Source: a virus. Taken from it: DNA of 64,000 nt. The notes under the pieces are model-generated. The model worked only from the letters and a program-made list of their open reading frames with translations, ran no database searches and was not told the origin of the DNA. The stretch lies in the IMG/VR virus record IMGVR_UViG_3300033156_000312, positions 18,046-82,045 of that record. One strand, written 5' to 3'. Below, in pieces: positions 979-25,558 of the stretch; position 1 is the first letter of the stretch; the number at the start of each line of letters is the position of its first letter. The position numbers and the translations under genes were made by a program.

Positions 979-2868
979 ATGCAATATAAACAAATAATTC
1001 TATCAAAGCTTATTGACTATTTAAAGTATAAAAAAATCAAATTGAGTCGAGGGCATATAAAGACTTTTTCTTGTCCTTTTTGTGGCAAGACAGCAACATT
1101 ATTACCAAACTCTCATTATGTAAATTGTTTTTTTTGTCGTCCTAAAGAAAATTTTGGAGAATATTTTACAGTTATAGATATTGCAAGAAAATTGGATAAA
1201 CCAGATGCTTCAGATGAAGAAATCTTACAATATCTTAAAGATATATTAAACATTAAAGTAATGACAAAACAAGATGAAGTAAAAGTAGAAGATATATTAA
1301 AGAAATATCAAGAATGGGGGTTCGATTTAGTTCCAATAGTTACTAATGGAAAAATTCCCGCAGAAAAAGAATGGACAAAGAAAACCCATAAAGATATAAA
1401 TGAATGGATGCGATGGATAAAAGACGGTCTTAACATAGGAGTTAAAACGGGAAAAGTAAGCAATATTATTGTAGTGGATATAGACCAAAAACCAATACCA
1501 AATGAAATCAAAAATTTATTAAGAGATGATAGCACTTTTATTCAAGAAACAACAAAGGGCTATCATTTATTTTATAAATATGACTCTGACTTACCAAAAA
1601 CTCGTATAGATGAAATCAAAATAGATATAGAGAATGATGGTGGGCAAGTTGTGATATATCCTTCGAGAATTAAAGATAAGGAAAGAAAAATTCAACAATT
1701 TGGAAAGATAGCAGAAATGCCCGAAGAATTAAAAGAATATCTAAAGAAACAAATGACCGTCCCTCGCAAAACTCAAAGTGAAAAGATAAGTGAAGATATA
1801 CAAACAGAAGATTTTAATTTAGGGGTATTGGGAGAAGGACAAAGAAATTCATCTTTAGTAAGAATAGGTGGAATTTTGAGAAAAGAACTTAATAAAAAAC
1901 AAACCGAGTATACTTTACATATGCTTAATAAAGTTTTATGTAAACGACCTCTCCCCGTCAAAGAAATGCGAGCTATGATAAATAGCTTAGATAAATATAC
2001 TCACTTTGATGAAAAAGAGTTGGCTCATAAAGTATTAGAATATTTGAGAGACATAGAAGAAGCTAATAGAAATGAAATTGCTATGGCAATAGTAGGAACT
2101 AATCGAGGAGAGGAAAAAAAGAGAATAGATAAAGCTCTACAATATTTGGTTAAAGAAAGATATGTATCTAAAATAGGGAGAAGTTATTCCATTCGAAAAA
2201 AAGTAGAATGGAAAGAAACTTTGATTAATATAGGAGTTCCGATTGATTTTCAAATGCCATATTTTTATGATTTAATGCACTTTCATTTTGGAGATTTAAT
2301 TATTATCGGGTCAAGAAACGCTACAGGAAAAACTCATATAGCCATGAATATAGTTAAACAATTAGTTGAACAGAAAATTACTCCTTATTATCTTTCTCTT
2401 GAAGGTGGTTCAAGATGGGCAAAAATAGCACTACAACTCGGATTAAAAGAAAGAGATTTTAAGTGGGAAGAAACTTCTAATCCTAATAATGTAGAATTAG
2501 AACAAAATGCTATTACTATAATTGATTGGTTATGTCCAAAAAGTTATGCAGAAACAGATAAAATATTACAAAACTTAAATGATAAAGTGCGTGAAACTAA
2601 AGGAATATTAATTGTTTTTGTTCAGTTACGAGATAATAACGAATGGTTAGCTAAAGATTTAATAAAACAATTCCCTGCTTTTGCTTGTAGATATATTTAT
2701 GATAATGAAGATAGTGGAGAATATGGCAAATTTAAAATAGACAAATTAAGAGATGCTAAAATACGTATTAAAAGTTATGAATTACCAGCATATTATAATT
2801 GGGAAACTAAAGAACTCATATTAGTTTCAGAATTAGAACAAAAAAAGAAATTAGAAAATGAAGAATAA
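979..2868 (+). CDS. Primase-polymerase (Prim-Pol/AEP) with N-terminal Zn ribbon, PriCT-like region and C-terminal RecA-fold helicase-like domain
   Basis: CPFC..CFFC; NIGVKTG..IIVVDID; TTKGYHLFY; GQVVIYPS; GEGQRN; Walker A-like GSRNATGKT; Walker B-like IIDW. Confidence 0.85.
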   Translation: MQYKQIILSKLIDYLKYKKIKLSRGHIKTFSCPFCGKTATLLPNSHYVNCFFCRPKENFGEYFTVIDIARKLDKPDASDEEILQYLKDILNIKVMTKQDEVKVEDILKKYQEWGFDLVPIVTNGKIPAEKEWTKKTHKDINEWMRWIKDGLNIGVKTGKVSNIIVVDIDQKPIPNEIKNLLRDDSTFIQETTKGYHLFYKYDSDLPKTRIDEIKIDIENDGGQVVIYPSRIKDKERKIQQFGKIAEMPEELKEYLKKQMTVPRKTQSEKISEDIQTEDFNLGVLGEGQRNSSLVRIGGILRKELNKKQTEYTLHMLNKVLCKRPLPVKEMRAMINSLDKYTHFDEKELAHKVLEYLRDIEEANRNEIAMAIVGTNRGEEKKRIDKALQYLVKERYVSKIGRSYSIRKKVEWKETLINIGVPIDFQMPYFYDLMHFHFGDLIIIGSRNATGKTHIAMNIVKQLVEQKITPYYLSLEGGSRWAKIALQLGLKERDFKWEETSNPNNVELEQNAITIIDWLCPKSYAETDKILQNLNDKVRETKGILIVFVQLRDNNEWLAKDLIKQFPAFACRYIYDNEDSGEYGKFKIDKLRDAKIRIKSYELPAYYNWETKELILVSELEQKKKLENEE

Positions 2869-3769
2869 AAAATTAAATCAATATATAATATCAGCTAAAA
2901 AGTTAATCAACATGCCTTATAATCAATTAAATTTAGCTAATTACAAGAAAAAATTTGTTAATATTTATAAATTAAAAAATATACACTTTATAAATACTTC
3001 TTCTAAAAAACCTATTAAATTAATGTCTGGACAATCTAAAAATGCAGGTATTATTGCTTCTTCAATTCCATCTTCCAAAAGAAATATTTATTTAATAGGT
3101 AAGGGGATTTTATTTGATGCAGGAGGATATGATTTAAAATCTTCTGGAAAAATGAATAATATGAAATGTGATATGAGCGGAATGGCAATAGCATTTGCTG
3201 TATCTTCTTATTTTAAAAATAATAATGTAATCGCTTATTGTCCTGTCGCTACAAATTTTATACATAATAACCAAATTACTCCTGGCGATTACATCAAGAT
3301 AGGAAATAAAACTGTAGAAATAACAAATACAGATGCAGAAGGTAGATTAATTTTAGCTGAAGCATTAAGTCAACTTACTGTTGAAAAGAATGATATAATT
3401 ATAACAATAGCTACTTTAACAGGAGTATGTGCTTATGCTATTGGAGAAAAAGCAACCGCTTTTATGACTCCAACTAAAGAATTTACTCATAAATACAAAC
3501 TTGCGAGCAAAAAAGCAAACGAACTTGCTTGGAGACTTCCATTATGGGACTATTTACAAAAATCTTTTAATAAAAAAAGAATAACGAATACTTCTAAGGA
3601 AAAATGTGGGACTATTATGGGGGGAATGTTCCTAAAACAATTTATTCCAAACCCCAAAAATTGGATTCATCTCGATATAGCTTATTCGGCTTATGATAAC
3701 AAAAAAAATAAGGCGACTGGAGAACCTATAATGAGTTTAGTTTACTTTGTTGAGGAGTTATTGAAATGA
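2858..3769 (+). CDS. M17 leucyl aminopeptidase, catalytic domain only
   Basis: GKGILFDAGGYDLK, MKCDMSG, NTDAEGRLILAE, ATLTG, WRLPL, WIHLDIA. Confidence 0.9.
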   Translation: MKNKKLNQYIISAKKLINMPYNQLNLANYKKKFVNIYKLKNIHFINTSSKKPIKLMSGQSKNAGIIASSIPSSKRNIYLIGKGILFDAGGYDLKSSGKMNNMKCDMSGMAIAFAVSSYFKNNNVIAYCPVATNFIHNNQITPGDYIKIGNKTVEITNTDAEGRLILAEALSQLTVEKNDIIITIATLTGVCAYAIGEKATAFMTPTKEFTHKYKLASKKANELAWRLPLWDYLQKSFNKKRITNTSKEKCGTIMGGMFLKQFIPNPKNWIHLDIAYSAYDNKKNKATGEPIMSLVYFVEELLK

Positions 3770-4296
3770 AATATCCAATTAAAAAAATAGAAAAGGCGTT
3801 TAATATCAAATTAAAAAGAAATGCTGTATCTCTTGGATTAGACACCGCCAGCAAATCGGGATATTGTATCGCAAAAACGAATACTAAAACTATCAAATTA
3901 GATATTGGGTTTATTAATATTGATGTAAAAGGGATTAAAGACAGAGTTTTAAAAAATGCTCTTAGATACGAAGAATTATATAGACAATTGAAAAAGCTTA
4001 TAAAATCAAATTATATTGTTGTGATTGAGGACGTTTTTCATTCATTTAATGCTTATACAACTATTTTATTAGCAAGAATAGGAGCAATTGCCTGGACTCT
4101 CGCAAAAGAAATTGACTGTAAGAAGATAATGTGGAAGACAGCCGTTCAAGCCAGGAAAGGTTTGAGCTTACCTTGTAACAAAAAGAAAAAAATAGTAATG
4201 AATGAAATGAACAAAATACTGAATACTAAGATAAAGAACTCTGATATGGTGGACGCATTAATTTTGGCTATTAATGGTCTAATTAAGGAGAAATAA
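3766..4296 (+). CDS. RuvC-like Holliday junction resolvase
   Basis: LGLDTAS..GY, VVIED, DMVDAL acidic tetrad pattern. Confidence 0.75.
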   Translation: MKYPIKKIEKAFNIKLKRNAVSLGLDTASKSGYCIAKTNTKTIKLDIGFINIDVKGIKDRVLKNALRYEELYRQLKKLIKSNYIVVIEDVFHSFNAYTTILLARIGAIAWTLAKEIDCKKIMWKTAVQARKGLSLPCNKKKKIVMNEMNKILNTKIKNSDMVDALILAINGLIKEK

Positions 4297-12892: not shown

Positions 12893-13068
12893 AAAGAAGA
12901 AAAAAATTAAGAACTTACATTGTAACTTATGAACCAGATGATTGTTATGATTATATTACTGTAAGAGCTTCATCTTTAGAAAGAGCGAAAGAAATAGCTA
13001 TGAAAAAAGAACAGTTAGATGAATATCAAATTGTTGATATAGTGCCCAAAGGCAAATGGAGGAAATAA
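12874..13068 (+). CDS. Hypothetical protein
   Basis: Y.V.Y...V.A.S.E.A...A pattern common in small phage proteins. Confidence 0.5.
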   Translation: MEGDKMKRRKKLRTYIVTYEPDDCYDYITVRASSLERAKEIAMKKEQLDEYQIVDIVPKGKWRK

Positions 13069-13952
13069 AAATGAAAAAGGATAAAAAGCAAAGTATGAAA
13101 AAGAATTGTAAACTATGTAATAATTTATTTATTGCTACAGGCAATAATCACAAATATTGTAAAAATTGCTGTCTTTTAAATAATAAAGAAAAAACTAAAA
13201 TATATAATCAAAAATATAGAAAAGAACATAAAAATCCAAATCCTAAACATAAATTTTGGACAAAGCAAGAAGAAAAATATCTTAAAGAAAATTATGAATG
13301 GGGAAATAAAAAGGAAATATTGTCATATTTAAAAAGAAGTTGGTATTCGATTAATCATCATGCTAAATTTCTAAAAATATGTAGATTTAGGAGAAATAGC
13401 AAAATAAAAAATATATTAGGTAATAACTTTAGTTTTCGTATCAATAATCCTGGTGGACATGTTCGTATTAGTAATCCTTCTTTAGGAGTTTATAATCAAT
13501 TAGCTCATAGATATATTTGGGAAAAATATTATAACAAAAAAATACCTAAAGATTGTTATATTCATCATAAAGATGGCAATCCTCAAAATAATAATATTGA
13601 AAATTTAACTTTAGTCAAAATAACTGAACATTTTAATGTAGAAGCAATTAGACGAATTGCTCAAGAATGTTTTGAAATAGCAGATGCTCATGGATTTTGG
13701 AAAAGAAAAAATGGTAAACCTTATAGAAATGTAGGAGAAGCTTTATGTTTAATAGTTTCTGAAGTTAGCGAAGCATTTGAAAGTTATAGAAAAAATCCAA
13801 AGGATAAAGAACATTTTGTAGAAGAATTGGCTGATGTGTTAATACGATTATTAGATTTTAGTTATGGAATGGGATTACATATTGAAAATGCTTTACGAAA
13901 AAAAATGGAAATAAATAAAAAGAGGCCTTATAAACATGGCAAAAGATTCTAA
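13056..13952 (+). CDS. HNH endonuclease fused to MazG-like NTP pyrophosphohydrolase (start probably 13071)
   Basis: AHRYIWE..IHHKDGNPQNN.IENL, then LIVSEVSEAFE..EELADVLIRLLD..KM.IN..RPYKHGK. Confidence 0.85.
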   Translation: MEEIKMKKDKKQSMKKNCKLCNNLFIATGNNHKYCKNCCLLNNKEKTKIYNQKYRKEHKNPNPKHKFWTKQEEKYLKENYEWGNKKEILSYLKRSWYSINHHAKFLKICRFRRNSKIKNILGNNFSFRINNPGGHVRISNPSLGVYNQLAHRYIWEKYYNKKIPKDCYIHHKDGNPQNNNIENLTLVKITEHFNVEAIRRIAQECFEIADAHGFWKRKNGKPYRNVGEALCLIVSEVSEAFESYRKNPKDKEHFVEELADVLIRLLDFSYGMGLHIENALRKKMEINKKRPYKHGKRF

Positions 13953-16962: not shown

Positions 16963-17334
16963 ATGATTTTGTATCACCCATCAGACCGAAAATTCAATAT
17001 TGTAAAAGTAAAATATTTTGGAGAACATTATTATACTTTAAATGACATGAAAATATCTCCAGTTCCTCGAACTTTTTGGTATAACGAATTACCGATTTCA
17101 GAAAATAGATTTAAATCATCTCAATTTATTTATGTAGCAAAAGTGAATAAAAAACGGATTTATGATTTAAGAAAAGATAAAAATAACTTATTAGAGAAAT
17201 TTAGATATAGAGGATTACATGGGCTTTTATTATATTTGAAGAAAAGGTATTTAGGTGTTATATATCAAGTGCAAGAATTTAATTTAGTCGCAATTTTTAA
17301 AGATATAAAACCTATAAGGAGAATAGAAAAATGA
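16963..17334 (+). CDS. Hypothetical protein, possible ADP-ribosyltransferase-like fold
   Basis: LYHPS..YFG..PRTFWY..E..Y....IYDL pattern. Confidence 0.35.
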   Translation: MILYHPSDRKFNIVKVKYFGEHYYTLNDMKISPVPRTFWYNELPISENRFKSSQFIYVAKVNKKRIYDLRKDKNNLLEKFRYRGLHGLLLYLKKRYLGVIYQVQEFNLVAIFKDIKPIRRIEK

Positions 17335-18341
17335 AAAATATTGTTTATGCCCCAGGAGTTTTCGATATGCTTCATATTGGACATATTCAATATCTTCAAA
17401 AAGCAAAAACTCAAGGAGATTATTTAATTGTAGGAGTGCAAAGTGATAAAGGTGTAGAATCTATGAAAGGAACGAAACCTATTCTATCTGAGAATATAAG
17501 AATGCAAACAATAAAAGCTTTAGAATGTGTAGATGATGCTTTTATATATGAAGATACTAATTATATATACCATGCAAAAAGAGCAAATGCTAAAATATTT
17601 TGTTTATCTACTCAACATAAAGAAGCTGAACGTTTTAAAGAATTAGTCAAATATATGAGAGACATAGGAGGGAAAATAGTATATATCTCTCATATGAAAG
17701 GTATATCTTCTACTGCGATTAAAGATAAAGTTAAAAATGAATGGAAATCTGTTTGGGAAAGAGTCGCCTCTTCTGATAAAAATGATATAGAAGTAAATGG
17801 AGGATATAATCAAATAGGAGAAAAAAATGCTGTTAAATTAGCATTATACTTAACTGATAAATTTGCAATTAGACAAGAAGATAAAGTTTTAGATTATGGG
17901 TGTGGAAGTGGAATTATTTTACAGAAATTAAGATGTCAAAAATATGGTATAGATATATCTCCCAGCATGATAGAAAGAGCTATCAAAAATAATCCATCTG
18001 GACTTTTTGCTGTTGGAGATGATATAATAATGAGAGGACATTATAATTATATTATTTGTCATGGCACTGTTCAATATTTCTCTAATACTGTTTACGCTTC
18101 TCATATTTTTTTAGAGATGAAGCGTTATGCAGACTGTGTAATTATTTGTGATATTCCTGACGAAGCAAAAAAAGAACAACGAGAGAGGTATAGAAGAGAA
18201 CGAGGAATGAATTCTTATCCCCCTCATTTATATTATTCTCGTGAGTTTTTTAGAAATTTAGATTTTGAAACTTTTGACAATGAAATATCGATAACAAATA
18301 ATAAAAATTACGGTTTTTATGCAGTGTGGAGACGAAAATGA
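17331..18341 (+). CDS. TagD-like cytidylyltransferase fused to class I SAM methyltransferase
   Basis: GVFDMLHIGH, LIVGVQSD, ISSTAIK; VLDYGCGSG, GIDIS..MI. Confidence 0.88.
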   Translation: MKNIVYAPGVFDMLHIGHIQYLQKAKTQGDYLIVGVQSDKGVESMKGTKPILSENIRMQTIKALECVDDAFIYEDTNYIYHAKRANAKIFCLSTQHKEAERFKELVKYMRDIGGKIVYISHMKGISSTAIKDKVKNEWKSVWERVASSDKNDIEVNGGYNQIGEKNAVKLALYLTDKFAIRQEDKVLDYGCGSGIILQKLRCQKYGIDISPSMIERAIKNNPSGLFAVGDDIIMRGHYNYIICHGTVQYFSNTVYASHIFLEMKRYADCVIICDIPDEAKKEQRERYRRERGMNSYPPHLYYSREFFRNLDFETFDNEISITNNKNYGFYAVWRRK

Positions 18342-18721
18342 TGCGTTATTGGTTATTTATAGGACGTTGGAGTCCTTTTCATAATGGACATAAGTATATA
18401 ATAGATAGTTATGTCAATACAGGGAAACCAGTCTGTATTGCTGTGCGAGATAGCAAAGAAAAATATTCTACTGCATTAAGAAAAATGATGATTGAAGCTG
18501 TTTATAAGAAAGAAATTGAAGAAGAACGAGTAAAAGTCATTATTATTCCTGATATAGAAGGAGTTGCAGTTGGAAGAAAAATTGGATATTCAATCATTCA
18601 AGTTCCTGATAAAATTAAAAATATTTCTGGAACAAAAATCAGAGCTGGACAATTAAATGATGTTCCTTCAGAAGTGCAAAAAATTTTAGATGAATGGAAA
18701 AAATATAACGAATCTCGATAA
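18326..18721 (+). CDS. Small HxGH nucleotidyltransferase (candidate minimal ATP sulfurylase; NadM-like alternative); start probably 18338
   Basis: FIGRWSPFHNGH, VGRKIGY, ISGTKIR. Confidence 0.7.
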   Translation: METKMMRYWLFIGRWSPFHNGHKYIIDSYVNTGKPVCIAVRDSKEKYSTALRKMMIEAVYKKEIEEERVKVIIIPDIEGVAVGRKIGYSIIQVPDKIKNISGTKIRAGQLNDVPSEVQKILDEWKKYNESR

Positions 18722-18756
18722 ATGATTTTATATGAATTATCGAAAAGAGATTTTAA

Positions 18757-19545
18757 ATGAGAAAAAGAATAAATAAATTACCGAGCTTTTTGATTATAGG
18801 AATGGCAAAATGCGGAACAACCAGTTTATATAATATGTTAATTCAACATCCAAAAATTCAACCCGCCAAAAGAAAGGAATTATATTTTTTTGAAAAAGAT
18901 GATATATATGAAAAAGGGATAAATTTTTATAGAAAACAATTTAATTCTTGTGCAGAAGATGAAATTTGTGGAGAAGCGACTCCTTATTACTTATATTACA
19001 AAAAGACTCCTGCAAGAGTTAAAAATCTTCTTCCTAATGTAAAATTGATAGTATTATTAAGAAATCCAATTACTCGAAGTTACTCTCATTTTTATGGATA
19101 TTTAAGATTATGTAAAAAGAAAAAGCAAATTCCCATAGCATTAACTTTGAAAGAATTTTTAGAAAAAATTGAAAAAAATCCAGAAGTTAAACTTAATTAT
19201 AGAGGACAAAATTTTCTGAAGAAAAGTATATATGTAGATATGCTCAAACATTGGTTTAAATATTTTTCAAGAAATCAAATTATGATTATTAAAAGCGAAG
19301 ATTTTTTTAAATCCCCTCAATTGATTACGAATACTGTATTTGAATTTTTAGGTCTGTCAAAATATAACGTAAAAATAAGACATGACTTAAAAACCGAAGA
19401 AATGAATTTGGTATTATTAAAAGTCAGGAGATATGCTAAATTATCACAATTTGTCATAGATTATTTGAAAAATTATTATGCTCAATATAATAAACGACTA
19501 TATCAATTAATTGAACGAGACATGAATTGGGAGAATGAAATATGA
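18757..19545 (+). CDS. PAPS-dependent sulfotransferase (heparan-sulfate-ST-like family)
   Basis: 5'-PSB FLIIGMAKCGTTSL, KE..FF, GEATP.Y, 3'-PB LLRNPITRSYS. Confidence 0.92.
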   Translation: MRKRINKLPSFLIIGMAKCGTTSLYNMLIQHPKIQPAKRKELYFFEKDDIYEKGINFYRKQFNSCAEDEICGEATPYYLYYKKTPARVKNLLPNVKLIVLLRNPITRSYSHFYGYLRLCKKKKQIPIALTLKEFLEKIEKNPEVKLNYRGQNFLKKSIYVDMLKHWFKYFSRNQIMIIKSEDFFKSPQLITNTVFEFLGLSKYNVKIRHDLKTEEMNLVLLKVRRYAKLSQFVIDYLKNYYAQYNKRLYQLIERDMNWENEI

Positions 19546-20285
19546 AACTAAAAAAAATCAATAAAAAAACATTTAGTTGGCAAGGAATAGCTTATAGAAT
19601 TTTCGTTATTGGTGTTAATGCTATATTTTTTAAAGTTGGAGCTAAACAAGCTATGCAACAATATGGTGCTATTGGAGCTTCTTTGATTTGGAATAGTATT
19701 AATATGATATTATATTTTTTATATCATGGAGTATTTTTAAGATTATTTTCTTTACGAATTGAAACTAATGGGACTGTAATTTGGTTTACGGGACTAAGTG
19801 GAAGCGGAAAAACTACGATAAGTGATAAATTAGCACAAGAACTATTACAAAGAGGATATAAAGTCCAAAAATTAGATGGAGATATATTAAGAAAAACAAT
19901 CAATAAAGATTTAGGATTTTCATTGGAAGATAGAAAAATCAACTTAGAACGTGCTATTGCAATTGCTAAAATATTAGCAGAAAATAAAATTATAGTATTA
20001 TGTTCTTTTATTTCTCCTGATAGAAATATAAGAAATAAATTCAGAAAACAAATAAAAAATTTCATAGAGATTTATGTTAATTGTCCTTTATCGATTTGTA
20101 AACAACGAGACCCTAAAGGATTATATCGACAGGCATGTGCAGGGAGAATATCGAATTTTACGGGAATTTCTCAAAAATATGAGCCTCCTTTACATCCACA
20201 TATAGAATTAAAAACTGATTTGGAAAGTATAGAAAATAGCACAAAAAAAATTATGAATTATTTAAGAATTCAAAAATTAATTTGA
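19542..20285 (+). CDS. cysC: Adenylyl-sulfate (APS) kinase with N-terminal membrane domain
   Basis: WFTGLSGSGKTT, LDGD, DLGFS.EDR, SFISP, RDPKGLY, NFTGIS..YEPP; hydrophobic first ~70 aa. Confidence 0.92.
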   Translation: MKLKKINKKTFSWQGIAYRIFVIGVNAIFFKVGAKQAMQQYGAIGASLIWNSINMILYFLYHGVFLRLFSLRIETNGTVIWFTGLSGSGKTTISDKLAQELLQRGYKVQKLDGDILRKTINKDLGFSLEDRKINLERAIAIAKILAENKIIVLCSFISPDRNIRNKFRKQIKNFIEIYVNCPLSICKQRDPKGLYRQACAGRISNFTGISQKYEPPLHPHIELKTDLESIENSTKKIMNYLRIQKLI

Positions 20286-20289
20286 GACA

Positions 20290-20907
20290 GTGATGAAAAC
20301 TAAAAAACGTAATCGCAAAGGCAAAAATAACAGTAATTATATAGATGGAAGATGTTTAAAAAAGCATTACTGTAAAGATTGTGGAAAAAAGATTTCTTTA
20401 CAAACTGCTATATATGGAAAAGGAAAATGTAATTCTTGTTCTCATATAATACACGGAGAATATTTAAAAGTTCATTATTGTATAGATTGTAATAAAGAAA
20501 TAGGAAATAGAGCTACAAGATGTAGAAAATGTGCAGACAAATTACATAGCGAAAGAATGTCAACTAAGTTGAATTATTTTGCTGGAAAACACTTTACAAA
20601 AGAAAAAAACCCGAATTGGCAATATGGACTTTCATTTGAAGAATATGGTGCAGAATTCGATAATGCTCTCAAAGAACAAGTAAGACAAAGAGACCATTAT
20701 AAGTGTAGAATTTGTGGATGTAGTCAAGTAGAGAACGAAAGACAGTTAGATGTTCATCATATTGATTATGATAAGAAAAATAACGATATGAACAATCTTT
20801 TGACTTTATGTGTGCATTGTCATAGAAAGACCAATCACAATCGAGATTATTGGTTTGCTTATTGTCGATATATTATTTCATATTTAAAAAGAAATAAGTT
20901 AATATAA
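20290..20907 (+). CDS. HNH endonuclease with Zn-finger repeats
   Basis: CxxC repeats, RD.Y.C..CG, LDVHHIDYDK.NN...NL.TLC..CH. Confidence 0.9.
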   Translation: MMKTKKRNRKGKNNSNYIDGRCLKKHYCKDCGKKISLQTAIYGKGKCNSCSHIIHGEYLKVHYCIDCNKEIGNRATRCRKCADKLHSERMSTKLNYFAGKHFTKEKNPNWQYGLSFEEYGAEFDNALKEQVRQRDHYKCRICGCSQVENERQLDVHHIDYDKKNNDMNNLLTLCVHCHRKTNHNRDYWFAYCRYIISYLKRNKLI

Positions 20908-21491
20908 TGAATATAACAAACACCAAAAAATTCTTATTTGAAATAGCGGATGTGCTTGAGAAACACAATATAGAATTTTGTATATTTGCAGGCAATCTTT
21001 TAGGTTTAATTAGAGACGGAGATTTCATTCCATGGGATAAAGATATTGATTTAGCAGTGCGAACTCGCTTTTGGAACGATACTAAATTATTCAAAAAAGT
21101 TGCTGAAGATTTAATAAGAAAAAATATTTCACTTGATTATATTTGGAATAATGATATTTTAAGAATAGGAAAATATGGAATTCCTTGTCATATTATTTAC
21201 TTACGAAAAAATAATAAAGAATATTATCAATATGCAAATTCAGGGAAACATAGTTTCCCTTTAGAATGTATGAATACTTTTGATGAAATAAAATTTTGCG
21301 GAAGAAAATTTAAGATTCCTCATAATTCAAAAAAGTTATTAGAAAACACTTTTGGGAAATCATGGAAAATTCCTATGAAAGAATCAGCATGCAAAAGATT
21401 AAATAAAACTAAACTAAATTGGAAATCAGTAATTAATAAAGACAGATTTCATCTGAATTATATTATACCGTTTTTTGAGGAGGAACAATGA
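20907..21491 (+). CDS. LicD-family phosphotransferase
   Basis: GNLLGLIRDGDFIPWDKDIDL; P......L...FG..W..P. Confidence 0.88.
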   Translation: MNITNTKKFLFEIADVLEKHNIEFCIFAGNLLGLIRDGDFIPWDKDIDLAVRTRFWNDTKLFKKVAEDLIRKNISLDYIWNNDILRIGKYGIPCHIIYLRKNNKEYYQYANSGKHSFPLECMNTFDEIKFCGRKFKIPHNSKKLLENTFGKSWKIPMKESACKRLNKTKLNWKSVINKDRFHLNYIIPFFEEEQ

Positions 21492-22117
21492 GATATGTCA
21501 TAGGATTTGGGACAGGAAGAAGCGGAACAGTATCTCTCGCTAAATTGCTTAATGATTGTAAAAATGTAAACGTATCTCATGAATTTAGAGATAGAGGAGT
21601 TTATCATAGATTATCATGGAAGTTTAAGCAAAACGAAGCTAAAGAGAGATTAGATAATTTGAGAAAATTAGAAGGTAAATTAGTAGGAGATGTTGCACAT
21701 TATTATTTGAACTATATAGATTATTTTGTAGAAAAATTAGAAACAGATATTAAATTTGTGCTTCTTGGAAGAGATGCCGAAGAAACTGTCAAATCATTTA
21801 TGAAGAAATCAAGAGGATTCAATCATTGGATGTCTCCTCATACAAAAGTATTTAAAGATGGCAAATACAGACATATAGATTGGGATAGAACATTTCCAAA
21901 ATATAATGATGCCACATCAAAGAGACAAGCTATTTCTTTCTATGTAAATCATTATTATATTAGATGTATGGGATTAATAGGTCTATACCCAAAACGAATA
22001 TTTCTATTAGATATAAAAGAAATAAATAATAAGAAAAAACAAAAAGAACTATTTGATTTTCTTGAAATTCCCGAAGAAGATAGAGTATATCAGAGAATTT
22101 GGGAGAATAAATCATGA
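21488..22117 (+). CDS. Second sulfotransferase-like P-loop protein
   Basis: IGFGTGRSGTVSL, SHE, L.R....V.SF, LFDFL. Confidence 0.75.
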   Translation: MRYVIGFGTGRSGTVSLAKLLNDCKNVNVSHEFRDRGVYHRLSWKFKQNEAKERLDNLRKLEGKLVGDVAHYYLNYIDYFVEKLETDIKFVLLGRDAEETVKSFMKKSRGFNHWMSPHTKVFKDGKYRHIDWDRTFPKYNDATSKRQAISFYVNHYYIRCMGLIGLYPKRIFLLDIKEINNKKKQKELFDFLEIPEEDRVYQRIWENKS

Positions 22118-22680
22118 ATCCTACTATAAAAGATATACAAAAACTAATGAACAATAAAACAATTTGTCTAATTGGCAACTCACGGTCTATATTGAAGAAT
22201 GAAAAAGATATAGATATATATGATGTTATTTGTAGATGTAATAGAGGAAAACCTCAAGGAAAATCTAAATATATAGGTAGTAGAACAGACATATTATTTT
22301 TATCAACGAAAATAGATGGAGTCAGATTACAGAGAAACTTTAATCCCCGATTCATAATCTGGCTCCCCCCTGGGCGAAAGCGAGTTACACCTTTCGTAAA
22401 AAACAATGCCTATTTCGTGCCCAAAGAAGAATGGCAAATATTATACGATAAACTTTCTGGAGAATATCGTCCTTCAACAGGACTTATGGCTTTGAATTTT
22501 ATACTAAATCATCTTGAATTTAAGAAGCTCATTATTTACGGATTTGACTTCTTCAAATCTGGGACATGGTATCATCAAATAAAGAGCGGAGTGCATGAAG
22601 CTCATAATCCAGAAGAAGAGAAAAAGATAATAATAGAAATGATTAAGAATCGACCAAACGTGGAAATGAGAATAGAATGA
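22114..22680 (+). CDS. GT29 (sialyltransferase)-like glycosyltransferase
   Basis: Sialyl-L-like ICLIGNS..ID.YD.ICRCN..GSRTD; S-like PSTGLMA..YGFDFF; VS-like H....E. Confidence 0.8.
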   Translation: MNPTIKDIQKLMNNKTICLIGNSRSILKNEKDIDIYDVICRCNRGKPQGKSKYIGSRTDILFLSTKIDGVRLQRNFNPRFIIWLPPGRKRVTPFVKNNAYFVPKEEWQILYDKLSGEYRPSTGLMALNFILNHLEFKKLIIYGFDFFKSGTWYHQIKSGVHEAHNPEEEKKIIIEMIKNRPNVEMRIE

Positions 22681-23291
22681 TAATAATATCTTATGCAACT
22701 AAAAATACTCCTTATATGCAAGTAATTGAGCAAAGATTAAAACCTACTTTAAAGAAATTTAAGCTTAAATATGATATAGAATATCCAGAAGATTTTGGTT
22801 CATGGCAAGAAAATACTCATTATAAAGCCGAATTTATCAAGAAGATGCTTCTAAGACATAAAGAAGCTGTCTGTTTTATTGATTCTGATGCTACTATAGA
22901 AAAATATCCTAAATTATTATATAAATTACAAGACTACGATATGAGTTTACATTATCTTGATTTTGATTTACAATGGAGAAAAAAATCAGGCACAAAACGA
23001 GAAGCTCTTAGTGGCACTTTATATTTAAATTATAATGAAAAAATGTTGAAATTTCTTGATGACTGGATAGCTGAAAATGAAATCGATGCTCAATGGGAAC
23101 AAAGAAATATGCAAAAAGTATTGGAAAGATGGAAAGATAAATTGAGAATATATCCTCTCCCATACGAATATATAGTTATAGTATATGGGGGAGATAGAAT
23201 ACCTTCTCATATGGTCAAAAAAGAAGATGTAGTAATTCTCCATCATCAAGCGTCCAGACGTTATAGAAATTGGAAACGGAGAAAAAAATGA
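22677..23291 (+). CDS. GT-A nucleotide-diphospho-sugar transferase
   Basis: K..FI..L, DSD (DxD), SG..Y, EQ, LP.EY, HHQASR. Confidence 0.75.
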   Translation: MIIISYATKNTPYMQVIEQRLKPTLKKFKLKYDIEYPEDFGSWQENTHYKAEFIKKMLLRHKEAVCFIDSDATIEKYPKLLYKLQDYDMSLHYLDFDLQWRKKSGTKREALSGTLYLNYNEKMLKFLDDWIAENEIDAQWEQRNMQKVLERWKDKLRIYPLPYEYIVIVYGGDRIPSHMVKKEDVVILHHQASRRYRNWKRRKK

Positions 23292-23653
23292 TTTTAATGA
23301 TATGTGCTATAATAACAAATATAGGAGATTATGTTACTACATTAATAGGATTTCATTTTGGTTGCACTGAAGCAAATCCGTTAGCAAGATGTTTATTTAA
23401 AATTCCGATTATAGCATTTTTGATTAAGATACCATTAGTAACCTATTGGTTAATTACAGGAAATAGTTTATTACATTTAATAGCGACTATTTTGCTCGGT
23501 TTTTGTTGTATTAATAATATAATTCAAATTATGAAAATGAGGAGAGTAATAAAATGGATAAGCCAAGCCAACTCATTATCATTGGGGGCGGCCCGTCTAT
23601 ACGTGAAGGAATTAGTAAGGGTCTATGGCAAAGAATACAAAATAAATTTGTAA
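23270..23653 (+). CDS. Membrane protein (DUF5658-like); start probably 23288
   Basis: D..TT..G....E.NPL motif and three hydrophobic helices. Confidence 0.6.
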   Translation: METEKKMILMICAIITNIGDYVTTLIGFHFGCTEANPLARCLFKIPIIAFLIKIPLVTYWLITGNSLLHLIATILLGFCCINNIIQIMKMRRVIKWISQANSLSLGAARLYVKELVRVYGKEYKINL

Positions 23654-24246
23654 TAGGAATCAATTTCTCCTATAAGTATCACAAAGACCCCACAATTCAA
23701 TGTTTTCTCGATTGGAAATTTTTTCAACAGAATAAAGAAGAAATGTTAAAGCTTCCTTTGATAGTTACAAAAAAACATAACAAGATTTCTGGTAATAATA
23801 TGATTTATTTACGACCTACAACTAATTATCGTAGAGATTTAAGTAGTGGGGCGTGGAAGGGTTCTTTAACAGGTATTTATGCTGTCTCTTTAGGGATTTA
23901 TTTATTAGATGAAGGGACAATTTTTTTGTTGGGCTACGATTTCGATGGCATTTCACAGAAGGATTCAAAAAAACCTCTTACACATTATTTTCAGGGACAA
24001 TATAAACATAATGGGGTAGGAAAAGTGAGTTATTATAGAACTAAAGGCAAAGCTCAAAATGATTTTCATCCGTTCGCTAAAGAGAAAAAAGTTAAGATAT
24101 ATAATGTCTCTCTAAATAGTAAGATACCACAATTTGAGAAGATAAGTTACGATAAATTCTTTTCTCTTTTAAATAATAAAAAATATAATCAAGTAGTATT
24201 ACGAGAGTGGATTAAGAATAAATTAAAAGGAAAACCTGAGAAATAG
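23554..24246 (+). CDS. Maf/DUF115-like (GT29-related fold) transferase
   Basis: IIGGGPSI, VIGIN, F.D, TG..A...A-like, IFLLGYD, IYN.S..S. Confidence 0.65.
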   Translation: MDKPSQLIIIGGGPSIREGISKGLWQRIQNKFVIGINFSYKYHKDPTIQCFLDWKFFQQNKEEMLKLPLIVTKKHNKISGNNMIYLRPTTNYRRDLSSGAWKGSLTGIYAVSLGIYLLDEGTIFLLGYDFDGISQKDSKKPLTHYFQGQYKHNGVGKVSYYRTKGKAQNDFHPFAKEKKVKIYNVSLNSKIPQFEKISYDKFFSLLNNKKYNQVVLREWIKNKLKGKPEK

Positions 24247-24423
24247 TTATATCTAAAGGAGGTAAGAAAATGAATAGAAGAAAAACTGAAAAATTGATGC
24301 GATTAAAAGGATGTGAAGACTGTAAAAATTTAACTTGTCTCTGGAATAGTGAAGTAGCCACTAAAAGTGTGGCAAATGTTTTTACATCTAAATATAATTG
24401 TAATACAAGTAAAAGGAAATAAA

Positions 24424-24894
24424 ATGGAAATAAAAAGAGGAGATTTAATTCTTCTATATTATAGATTCGACCCTATTGCTTGGCTTATTAGAAGAAAAAC
24501 ACATAGCAAATGGAATCATATAGGAGTAGCATTGCATGGAACTAAAATTATAGATTTAAGAGCTACTAAGCTTCGCTATGCAAAGATTTCTCGCTTTACT
24601 AAAAGCTGTATTTATAAAATCAAAATCTTACGCATTAAAAATTTAACTCCAGAAATAAGAGAACATTTAATTAACACTCTTGCGAAACAATCAGAAATAA
24701 GACATTATTTCAAGATGTTGTGGAAATTTTTTCTGATGTTCTTCAATATCCCTACTGATATTTGTCTTAGTTGCTCAGAAGTAATCGCACAAGCATTAAG
24801 AGAGAAGAATATAGACATTTGCTCTGGAAAAGATGTGCGATTGATTACTCCCGAAGATTTTAACAAAAGTAAAGAGGTCTATCATGTCTCCTAA
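24424..24894 (+). CDS. Permuted papain-like (YaeF/YiiX, C92) amidase
   Basis: GDLIL, I...T.S.WNH.G, CSE..A, TPED. Confidence 0.75.
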   Translation: MEIKRGDLILLYYRFDPIAWLIRRKTHSKWNHIGVALHGTKIIDLRATKLRYAKISRFTKSCIYKIKILRIKNLTPEIREHLINTLAKQSEIRHYFKMLWKFFLMFFNIPTDICLSCSEVIAQALREKNIDICSGKDVRLITPEDFNKSKEVYHVS

Positions 24895-25558
24895 AATAGC
24901 AATTCTTGTTCCATGTTACAATGAAGAAAATCATATTAACAATATGATTTCTAAATTAAATAAATTGTCGTTACCTTATTTGTTTGTAAATGATGGTTCT
25001 ACAGATTGCACTCATAAAATTCTACATAGTATTCAATGCCCTTATATTGAGTATTATCCAAACAAAGGCAAAGGATATGCCATAAAAAAAGGAGCTAAAC
25101 ATTTAATAGCTCAAGGATATGATTATATTTTGATTATAGATTCAGACGAACAAAATGATATGAATGATTATTCACAATTTGTGAATGTTTTAAAAATACA
25201 TCCAGATGCAAAAATTGTTATAGGAAATAGATTTCATAACCCTCAAAACATGCCAACTATAAGATATTATACTAATAAATGCATGTCTTGGATTATATCC
25301 AAATTAGCTCATCAAAAAATAACAGATACTCAATGTGGGTTTAGATTAGTGCATAAAGAGGTATTTAAAATAAGAACAAAAAGTTTACGATTTGAATACG
25401 AATCCGAACAATTAATCAAAGCTGGAAGAAAAGGATATAAAATAGTATCGACTCCTATCAAATGTATTTATTTTAAAGATAGAAAATCCAAAATTAGACC
25501 TTTACAAGATACATTCAGATTTTTTAAAATGTTATTAAATATTTATTTAATAAAATAG
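24884..25558 (+). CDS. GT2 glycosyltransferase (DPM1/GtrB-like)
   Basis: VPCYNEE, VNDGSTD, NKGKG.A, DSD.Q, IGNR, DTQCGFR, FE.E.E. Confidence 0.9.
   Translation: MSPKIAILVPCYNEENHINNMISKLNKLSLPYLFVNDGSTDCTHKILHSIQCPYIEYYPNKGKGYAIKKGAKHLIAQGYDYILIIDSDEQNDMNDYSQFVNVLKIHPDAKIVIGNRFHNPQNMPTIRYYTNKCMSWIISKLAHQKITDTQCGFRLVHKEVFKIRTKSLRFEYESEQLIKAGRKGYKIVSTPIKCIYFKDRKSKIRPLQDTFRFFKMLLNIYLIK

Follow-up and report, generated by a model that had tools for sequence, protein, structure and literature searches.

A small NadM-like nucleotidyltransferase coupled to APS kinase, proposed as a third kind of ATP sulfurylase in tailed phages and other lineages

The window analysed here is a 64,000-nucleotide stretch of a virus genome (IMG/VR record IMGVR_UViG_3300033156_000312, positions 18,046 to 82,045), and the gene in question, designated NT for nucleotidyltransferase, encodes a small protein predicted to be an ATP sulfurylase of a third, minimal kind. 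All sulfate assimilation and all sulfation begin with ATP sulfurylase, of which, to our knowledge, two types only are recognised, Sat and CysDN. NT probably feeds adenosine 5′-phosphosulfate (APS) to the APS kinase (CysC) and, through it, to the sulfotransferases of the same phage. With slightly less assurance, the reading may be extended to the whole family, which would then constitute an independently evolved third class of ATP sulfurylase, based on a NadM-derived module of about 110 residues, that activates sulfate in numerous tailed phages and in lineages to which annotation ascribes no sulfate activation (SAR11, Marinimicrobia, Omnitrophota, the candidate phyla radiation (CPR), DPANN and other archaea, and some haloarchaea). 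The initial annotation of the window had proposed a minimal ATP sulfurylase from gene context; that proposal is now the best-supported one because linkage to cysC is very strong across the family, but by profile and by fold the protein is not a reduced Sat.

The plus-strand open reading frame (ORF) ends with a stop codon at 18721 and has three possible starts (GTG 18326, ATG 18338 and ATG 18341). ATG 18338 is the likely start because it overlaps the TGA stop codon of the upstream gene (18339-18341) as ATGA, because a GGAG sequence lies six bases before it, and because the homologues of NT begin at the equivalent residue; the homologue starts and the ATGA overlap disfavour GTG 18326. The overlap also suggests that translation of NT is coupled to that of the upstream gene. 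From ATG 18338 to 18721 the product has 127 amino acids (aa), the approximate length given by the initial annotation, and its translation contains the three motifs that were singled out there: GRWSPFHNGH (residues 9-18), VGRKIG (residues 78-83, VGRKIGY with the next residue) and ISGTKIR (residues 96-102).

18338-18721, + strand: NT, candidate minimal ATP sulfurylase, HIGH-motif nucleotidyltransferase (ORF, homologues, alignment and fold model)
18328-18331, + strand: GGAG, Shine-Dalgarno-like, 6 nt 5′ of ATG 18338

NT is a real gene and not a chance frame, because a word-indexed search gives 137 relatives at E ≤ 1e-3 (best 8e-72) and an exhaustive search of representatives gives 584, and because its AlphaFold2 model has a mean pLDDT (predicted local distance difference test) of 94.3. 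Its length stays within 113-135 aa over hundreds of relatives, and a gene fragment or a pseudogene was rejected for that reason. A tblastn search of 50,697 GenBank phage records returned no match at E ≤ 1e-5. In an alignment of 137 stand-alone members, seven residues are invariant (R10, H15, H18, R37, R80, G83 and R102) and others nearly so (G9, G17, P71, D72, G79, Y84, S97 and T99). R10, H15, H18, S97/T99 and R102 are the residues of the catalytic HIGH and SxTxxR motifs, while R37 and R80 are invariant arginines specific to the NT family. The sole Pfam match of NT is to CTP_transf_like (PF01467), just below threshold at 19.9 bits (cut-off 21); its relatives carry this domain, and the fold model matches 18 chains at Z ≥ 8, every one of them a HIGH-superfamily nucleotidyltransferase. 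Both sequence and model place NT in the HIGH-signature nucleotidyltransferase superfamily (CTP_transf_like, PF01467), which is characterised by a Rossmann-like fold with HxGH after strand 1.

Within this superfamily, the nearest relatives of NT are adenylyltransferases of cofactor synthesis. A profile search of the PDB with the NT alignment places archaeal nicotinamide mononucleotide (NMN) adenylyltransferases (NMNATs) at the top (MJ0541, E 2.6e-13), followed by NadM-Nudix enzymes and phosphopantetheine adenylyltransferases (PPATs). The best fold matches of the NT model are NMNAT 1f9a (Z 12.8, 122 residues aligned, root-mean-square deviation (rmsd) 3.3), PPAT 4nah (Z 12.4) and NadM 2qjo (Z 11.9), and a Foldseek ranking agrees. 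Sat chains match at Z 8.7 to 5.2, among them 1v47 (8.7, 118 residues aligned, rmsd 3.1), 2gks (7.6), 4dnx (6.5) and 1j70 (6.0). The GRWSPFHNGH and ISGTKIR motifs of NT align to those of MJ0541 and the M. thermautotrophicus NMNAT (GRxQPxHxGH and SxTxxR), in agreement with the earlier remark that the first and last motifs fit NadM.

Correspondence with Sat is of smaller extent. PF01747 does not match NT at E ≤ 0.01, and alignment by hhalign to the catalytic domains of 14 Sat proteins from the genomes examined in this analysis gives a probability of 56% (E 1e-4) over just 61 columns, pairing PFHNGH of NT with NPMHRAH of Sat and aligning the next two strands. The invariant positions of the Sat alignment are R27, N28, H31, H34 and I117-A123 (IVGRDHA, the next G being nearly invariant). 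The Sat signatures QxRNPxHxxH and GRDHAG are not present in the NT family, which has GRWxPFHxGH and GRxVGY instead; the two histidines and the G-R pair alone correspond. Of the three Sat counterparts that had been read by eye, alignment recovers HxGH with HxxH, but the equivalence of VGRKIG with VGRDHAG and of ISGTKIR with ISGTxxR is not borne out residue by residue. In comparisons of the structural model, too, NadM-type enzymes rank above Sat. Because profile and fold searches rank NMNAT and PPAT first, NT is best described as an offshoot of the NadM-type NMNAT branch and not a shrunken Sat; a truncated Sat was rejected as a candidate on these results.

The departure of NT from NadM is concentrated in one segment. 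NCBIfam NMNAT models score far below their cut-offs (NF002243, 33.7 bits against 127; TIGR01527, 24.8 against 181.2), and residues 6-77 alone match. In the reverse direction, true NadM proteins of haloarchaea match the NT family model at positions 4-75 only. NT is shorter than NadM by about 25 residues between strand 3 (IPDIE) and GY, where it has the GRxVGY loop instead, and positions 78-87 of the NT profile span residues 76-110 of the MJ0541 chain. In NMNAT structures, the segment between IPDIE and GY is presumably the NMN-binding part. The position of R37 is occupied in NadM by a glycine of the GIGSA stretch. From sequence and model, NT is most likely a HIGH-signature adenylyltransferase descended from NadM-type NMNATs, predicted to be catalytically competent, that has lost the segment for a large acceptor.

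The NT family is strongly linked to APS kinase. All 56 NT relatives of 224-2000 aa contain the APS_kinase domain (PF01583). A set of 319 family proteins was also fetched; of its 123 members with at least 200 aa, 118 include an APS-kinase domain, which precedes NT in 60 and follows it in 58. When 303 NT domains were placed in a maximum-likelihood tree (quick search over 114 columns, with many forks unresolved), well-supported branches force at least four and at least seven changes for the two fused architectures, so fusion or fission happened repeatedly. The fused kinases keep the motifs LDGDxxR, LGFSxxDRxxNxxR, KGxYxKA and FTGxxxPYExP in at least 60% of sequences. When 80 viral, 80 genome and 80 metagenome NT loci were scanned with a kinase-domain hidden Markov model (HMM), a match was found within 1 kb of NT in 204 of the 240 (76 viral, 69 genome and 59 metagenome loci) and farther away in nine more. 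Recurrent neighbours also include polysaccharide-synthesis genes and sulfotransferases, the latter at 22 viral loci and one genome locus (one cluster) and at eight Omnitrophota loci (another cluster).

Individual loci illustrate the range of arrangements. The closest relative with genomic context, 87% identical, has the same order of NT, sulfotransferase and CysC as the window. The isolate Halocatena pleomorpha has a sulfotransferase, an unknown ORF and a CysC-NT fusion, and on a complete Pyrinomonadaceae chromosome CysC precedes NT, after which the opposite strand carries a GNAT gene and a weak, sub-threshold sulfotransferase-like gene. In a Methanosarcinales metagenome-assembled genome (MAG; L106:7198-9498), a CysQ-like gene of the inositol-monophosphatase family, an NT-CysC fusion (304 aa) and a second, stand-alone CysC (218 bits) form a run with sulfotransferase-like matches upstream of it; the fused kinase of this locus may be regulatory.

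The genomes that encode NT mostly lack the known ATP sulfurylases. Among 50 NT-bearing genomes (by title Omnitrophota, Planctomycetota, Marinimicrobia, SAR11, CPR, DPANN, Bathyarchaeota, Acidobacteriota, Bacteroidota, Chlamydiae and haloarchaea), Sat was found in four, CysD in seven (called at E ≤ 1e-59, with three scoring above the cut-off), either in 10 and neither in 40. G023 (the complete Pyrinomonadaceae chromosome), G009 (the Halocatena isolate) and G048 (Pelagibacter HIMB2226) are among the 40. At least one Sulfotransfer_3 gene is present in 30 of the 50, and a cross-tally gives 23 that combine a sulfotransferase and NT with neither Sat nor CysD, several SAR11 genomes being of this type. 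A control set of 151 Acidobacteriota genomes, filtered at ≥ 90% completeness and tallied by hand (with unpublished G098 counted as Sat-positive), contains 98 with an APS kinase at E ≤ 1e-30, of which 84 have Sat; CysD is present in 12 of the remaining 14. This leaves two APS-kinase genomes: G023, which has NT, and G070, which has a different, divergent fused kinase. The NT model matches only G023 and G083 in the control set, and neither has Sat or CysD. Sat or CysD is thus found in 96 of 97 NT-free control genomes with APS kinase, against 10 of 51 NT-bearing genomes. The kinase of G070 (L161:~2700-3807, G070:C150) is a divergent APS-kinase-like domain whose N-terminal part resembles, by eye, a class-I glutamine amidotransferase; its neighbours, read by eye from translations, are a phosphoenolpyruvate-utilising-enzyme-like ORF and a nucleoside-triphosphate-transferase-like ORF, and the cluster probably belongs to a different pathway or system. 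The co-occurrence with cysC that the initial annotation had noticed at one locus is seen throughout the family, in fusions of both orders, in gene neighbourhoods and in complementarity with Sat and CysD.

The simplest chemistry for NT is ATP + sulfate → APS + pyrophosphate, because its partner phosphorylates APS, the downstream consumers use 3′-phosphoadenosine 5′-phosphosulfate (PAPS), and other routes to APS are usually missing. Sulfate would take the place of the mononucleotide as acceptor. HxGH, SxTxxR and R10 correspond to residues of the superfamily that bind ATP and stabilise the transition state, as established for NMNAT and PPAT, and R37 and R80 may bind the anion; a small anionic acceptor would fit a protein that has shed the stretch between IPDIE and GY and gained two invariant arginines on the acceptor side. 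The equilibrium of the ATP sulfurylase reaction is strongly unfavourable, which would explain the near-obligate physical or translational coupling of NT to APS kinase: fusion or coupling to the kinase could pull the reaction forward, much as in the Sat-CysC PAPS synthases, and APS might be channelled from one to the other. In the phage of the window, the APS made by NT would go to CysC, encoded 0.8 kb downstream, which would turn it into PAPS for one or two sulfotransferases of a glycan-modification operon.

Several observations weigh against this interpretation. In the PDB profile search with the NT alignment no Sat chain appears at E < 1, and all fold matches to Sat rank below those to NMNATs and PPATs (Z 10-12.8). 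No kinase was found anywhere in 27 of the 240 sampled loci; nine of these lie at a contig edge and 18 have room on both sides, and in the four that were scanned the neighbours include a methyltransferase, a GT2 glycosyltransferase, a radical-SAM (S-adenosylmethionine) protein and unknowns. Many partner kinases in viruses and SAR11 are about 30% identical to CysC or truncated. At the SAR11 loci (L141-L160, Pelagibacteraceae), an NT of 124-135 aa stands beside a truncated P-loop protein (for example L159:7552-8330), the flanking genes are of the fatty-acid-oxidation type and not glycan genes, and the Pelagibacter partner kinase has 135 aa and scores 38.5 bits, with the first ~90 positions of APS_kinase alone matched. 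Sat or CysD coexists with NT in the 10 genomes mentioned above, the 50 genomes are mostly MAGs and single-cell assemblies without completeness figures, and the host of the phage could in principle supply APS.

An unlikely alternative, though the best placed of three, is that NT acts in the PAPS pathway without being a sulfurylase, either as a regulatory or scaffolding partner of APS kinase or by adenylylating another small anion to give a product that the CysC-like kinase phosphorylates at the 3′ position. The non-catalytic APS-kinase-like domain of fungal ATP sulfurylase is a precedent for regulation; coupling to a kinase does not by itself fix the acceptor, many of the partner kinases are divergent, and in the Methanosarcinales locus the NT-CysC fusion precedes a second CysC with a higher score. 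A purely regulatory domain, however, would not usually keep H15, H18, S97/T99 and R102 invariant or nearly so in 137 sequences, and it would leave the missing Sat and CysD unexplained, while the kinase of the window passes the equivalog cut-off for apsK.

Slightly less probable is that NT is a nucleotidyltransferase for some other acceptor of a glycan pathway, such as an alcohol, sugar or polyol phosphate for LicD-type transferases, with APS supplied by the host. The operon does encode LicD, GT29-like and GT2 proteins, glycerol-3-phosphate cytidylyltransferase (2b7l), a small enzyme of the same superfamily, matches the NT model at Z 7.2, and the kinase-free loci with room on both sides would be accommodated. 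The operon already encodes a TagD/RfaE-type cytidylyltransferase of its own, however, and neither the 118 APS-kinase fusions among 123 long relatives nor the absence of Sat and CysD from NT-bearing genomes would be explained. That NT is an ordinary NMN (or nicotinic acid mononucleotide) adenylyltransferase boosting NAD synthesis during infection is quite improbable: its best sequence and fold matches and its GRxxPFHxGH and SGTxxR motifs are of NadM type, and the Joint Genome Institute (JGI) calls many relatives nicotinamide mononucleotide adenylyltransferase, but NT scores far under the NMNAT cut-offs with the N-terminal half alone aligned, lacks the presumed NMN-binding segment, has no NAD-salvage genes among its recurrent neighbours, and is not needed for NAD or coenzyme A synthesis, since NadD and CoaD are above cut-off in all five NT-bearing bacterial genomes tested; nor would such a role explain the APS-kinase fusions.

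As a candidate sulfurylase, NT may be compared with five known systems. It shares the GRxxPFHxGH and SGTxxR motifs with the NadM-type NMNATs (MJ0541, 1f9a; M. thermautotrophicus, 1ej2), its nearest relatives by profile and fold, but is about 40 residues shorter, falls below every NMNAT cut-off and is tied to APS kinase instead of NAD genes. With Sat-type ATP sulfurylases (T. thermophilus 1v47; yeast 1j70) it shares the proposed reaction, the HUP/HIGH fold, the alignment of HxGH with HxxH, a G-R loop after a strand and, by eye, SGTxxR, but it has no PUA-like N-terminal domain, no QTRNP or GRDHAG signature, and a third of the length. Bifunctional PAPS synthases (Aquifex 2gks; human PAPSS1 1x6v) resemble the NT fusions in joining an adenylyltransferase to an APS kinase, in either order, but because a NadM-like module of about 110 aa replaces Sat, the NT fusions have just ~280-330 aa; in the window, NT and CysC are encoded separately, on either side of a sulfotransferase gene. 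The pair formed by PPAT (CoaD), the second-best fold match of NT, and dephospho-CoA kinase (CoaE) performs analogous chemistry, adenylyl transfer followed by 3′-phosphorylation of the adenosine, but the partner kinase of NT is of the APS-kinase type (PF01583), not CoaE, and CoaD is separately present in the five genomes. CysDN acts at the pathway step proposed for NT and has a complementary distribution; its fold is unrelated (a PAPS-reductase-like ATP pyrophosphatase with a GTPase) and its reaction is coupled to GTP hydrolysis.

Full-text literature was searched for small, novel, missing or otherwise alternative ATP sulfurylases, for APS kinase in company with NMNAT or cytidylyltransferase, and for PAPS synthesis in phages; the excerpts returned contain no description of the NT family or of the NT-APS-kinase architecture; the reaction and the superfamily are known, and judging from those excerpts the family and the architecture are unrecognised. 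If the proposed activity is correct, NT would close the hole in the PAPS pathway of the 40 NT-bearing genomes (of 50) that combine APS kinase-like genes with neither Sat nor CysD, 23 of them with a sulfotransferase, and the sulfation capacity of NT-bearing organisms would have been systematically under-annotated. It would account for the extra domain that is so frequent in phage ‘cysC’ genes: many of these viral auxiliary genes would be complete PAPS synthases, NT with APS kinase would be the smallest PAPS synthase known, and phages would be able to supply the cell surface or the virion with a self-contained route to sulfation. The family would be an example of a cofactor adenylyltransferase trimmed so that it accepts an inorganic anion, and could provide a compact PAPS-regeneration module for biotechnology. 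The hypothesis is directly testable with the phage gene or with the fused homologues of the cultured haloarchaeon Halocatena pleomorpha.

The virus record from which the window was taken has 82,045 bases, a CheckV completeness of 87% and about 30% G+C, and is that of a tailed phage with primase, DNA polymerase, SbcC-like and tape-measure genes. As the initial annotation had noted for the window, no Sat or CysDN is encoded: neither Sat (PF01747) nor CysD (TIGR02039) was found in a search of the whole record, where the one strong APS-kinase match is the CysC of the window. NT belongs to a tightly packed glycan-modification operon (17331-25558) and stands just before the sulfotransferase and cysC, as originally described; the sulfotransferase gene follows NT directly, and cysC starts 821 bases past the NT stop codon. 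The gene upstream of NT encodes a second, distinct nucleotidyltransferase. After cysC, the operon encodes an HNH endonuclease, LicD, a Sulfotransfer_4-like protein, a GT29-like protein, a DUF5658 membrane protein and a GT2 protein.

17331-18341, + strand: TagD/RfaE-type cytidylyltransferase-like domain (65 bits) fused to a SAM methyltransferase (profile searches)
18757-19545, + strand: sulfotransferase (Sulfotransfer_1/3), PAPS consumer (Sulfotransfer_1, 58.9 bits)
19542-20285, + strand: APS kinase CysC (PF01583, 186.8 bits; TIGR00455, 209 bits against a cut-off of 138.7)
20290-20907: HNH endonuclease ORF between cysC and licD (profile scan)
21488-22117, + strand: second sulfotransferase-like gene (Sulfotransfer_4, sub-threshold at 22.1 bits against a cut-off of 22.8)

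Another HNH domain, fused to a MazG-like domain, is encoded further upstream in the window (13056-13952).

The kinase domain of the phage CysC comprises residues ~75-247, and residues 1 to ~72 (19542-19757) form a hydrophobic N-terminal extension, apparently of two helices, that has no match in a Pfam scan. A complex prediction for residues 72-247 of CysC with NT (score 0.00, mark 0.32) speaks neither for nor against binding. A membrane domain, DUF2061, is fused to NT in two relatives (P0274 and P0265), and in 15 viral loci a DUF2061 ORF recurs no farther than about 6 kb from NT, directly downstream in a representative one (L031). BLASTP of the CysC extension against a neighbouring DUF2061 protein gave no alignment. 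The DUF2061 links and the hydrophobic extension of CysC are hints of membrane-localised PAPS synthesis.

Relatives of NT bear the public names ‘cytidylyltransferase-like domain-containing protein’, ‘NMN adenylyltransferase’ and ‘adenylylsulfate kinase’, and the PHROGs label of the fused family is ‘kinase’. Among the 120 matches listed, six stand-alone NT proteins of 116-126 aa (P0006, P0015, P0022, P0028, P0060 and P0065) are called ‘adenylylsulfate kinase’ by JGI, the kinase domain being absent from all of them; the name was presumably transferred from fusions. Counts of viral ‘cysC’ auxiliary genes that are based on JGI names may be inflated or may hide a second domain. In one metagenomic protein of 432 aa (P0259), NT is fused to a region whose match to DHHA1 is weak and below the cut-off (E 7e-5). 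DHH/DHHA1 phosphoesterases include 3′-phosphoadenosine 5′-phosphate (pAp) phosphatases and family II pyrophosphatases, either of which would fit a sulfate-activation pathway.

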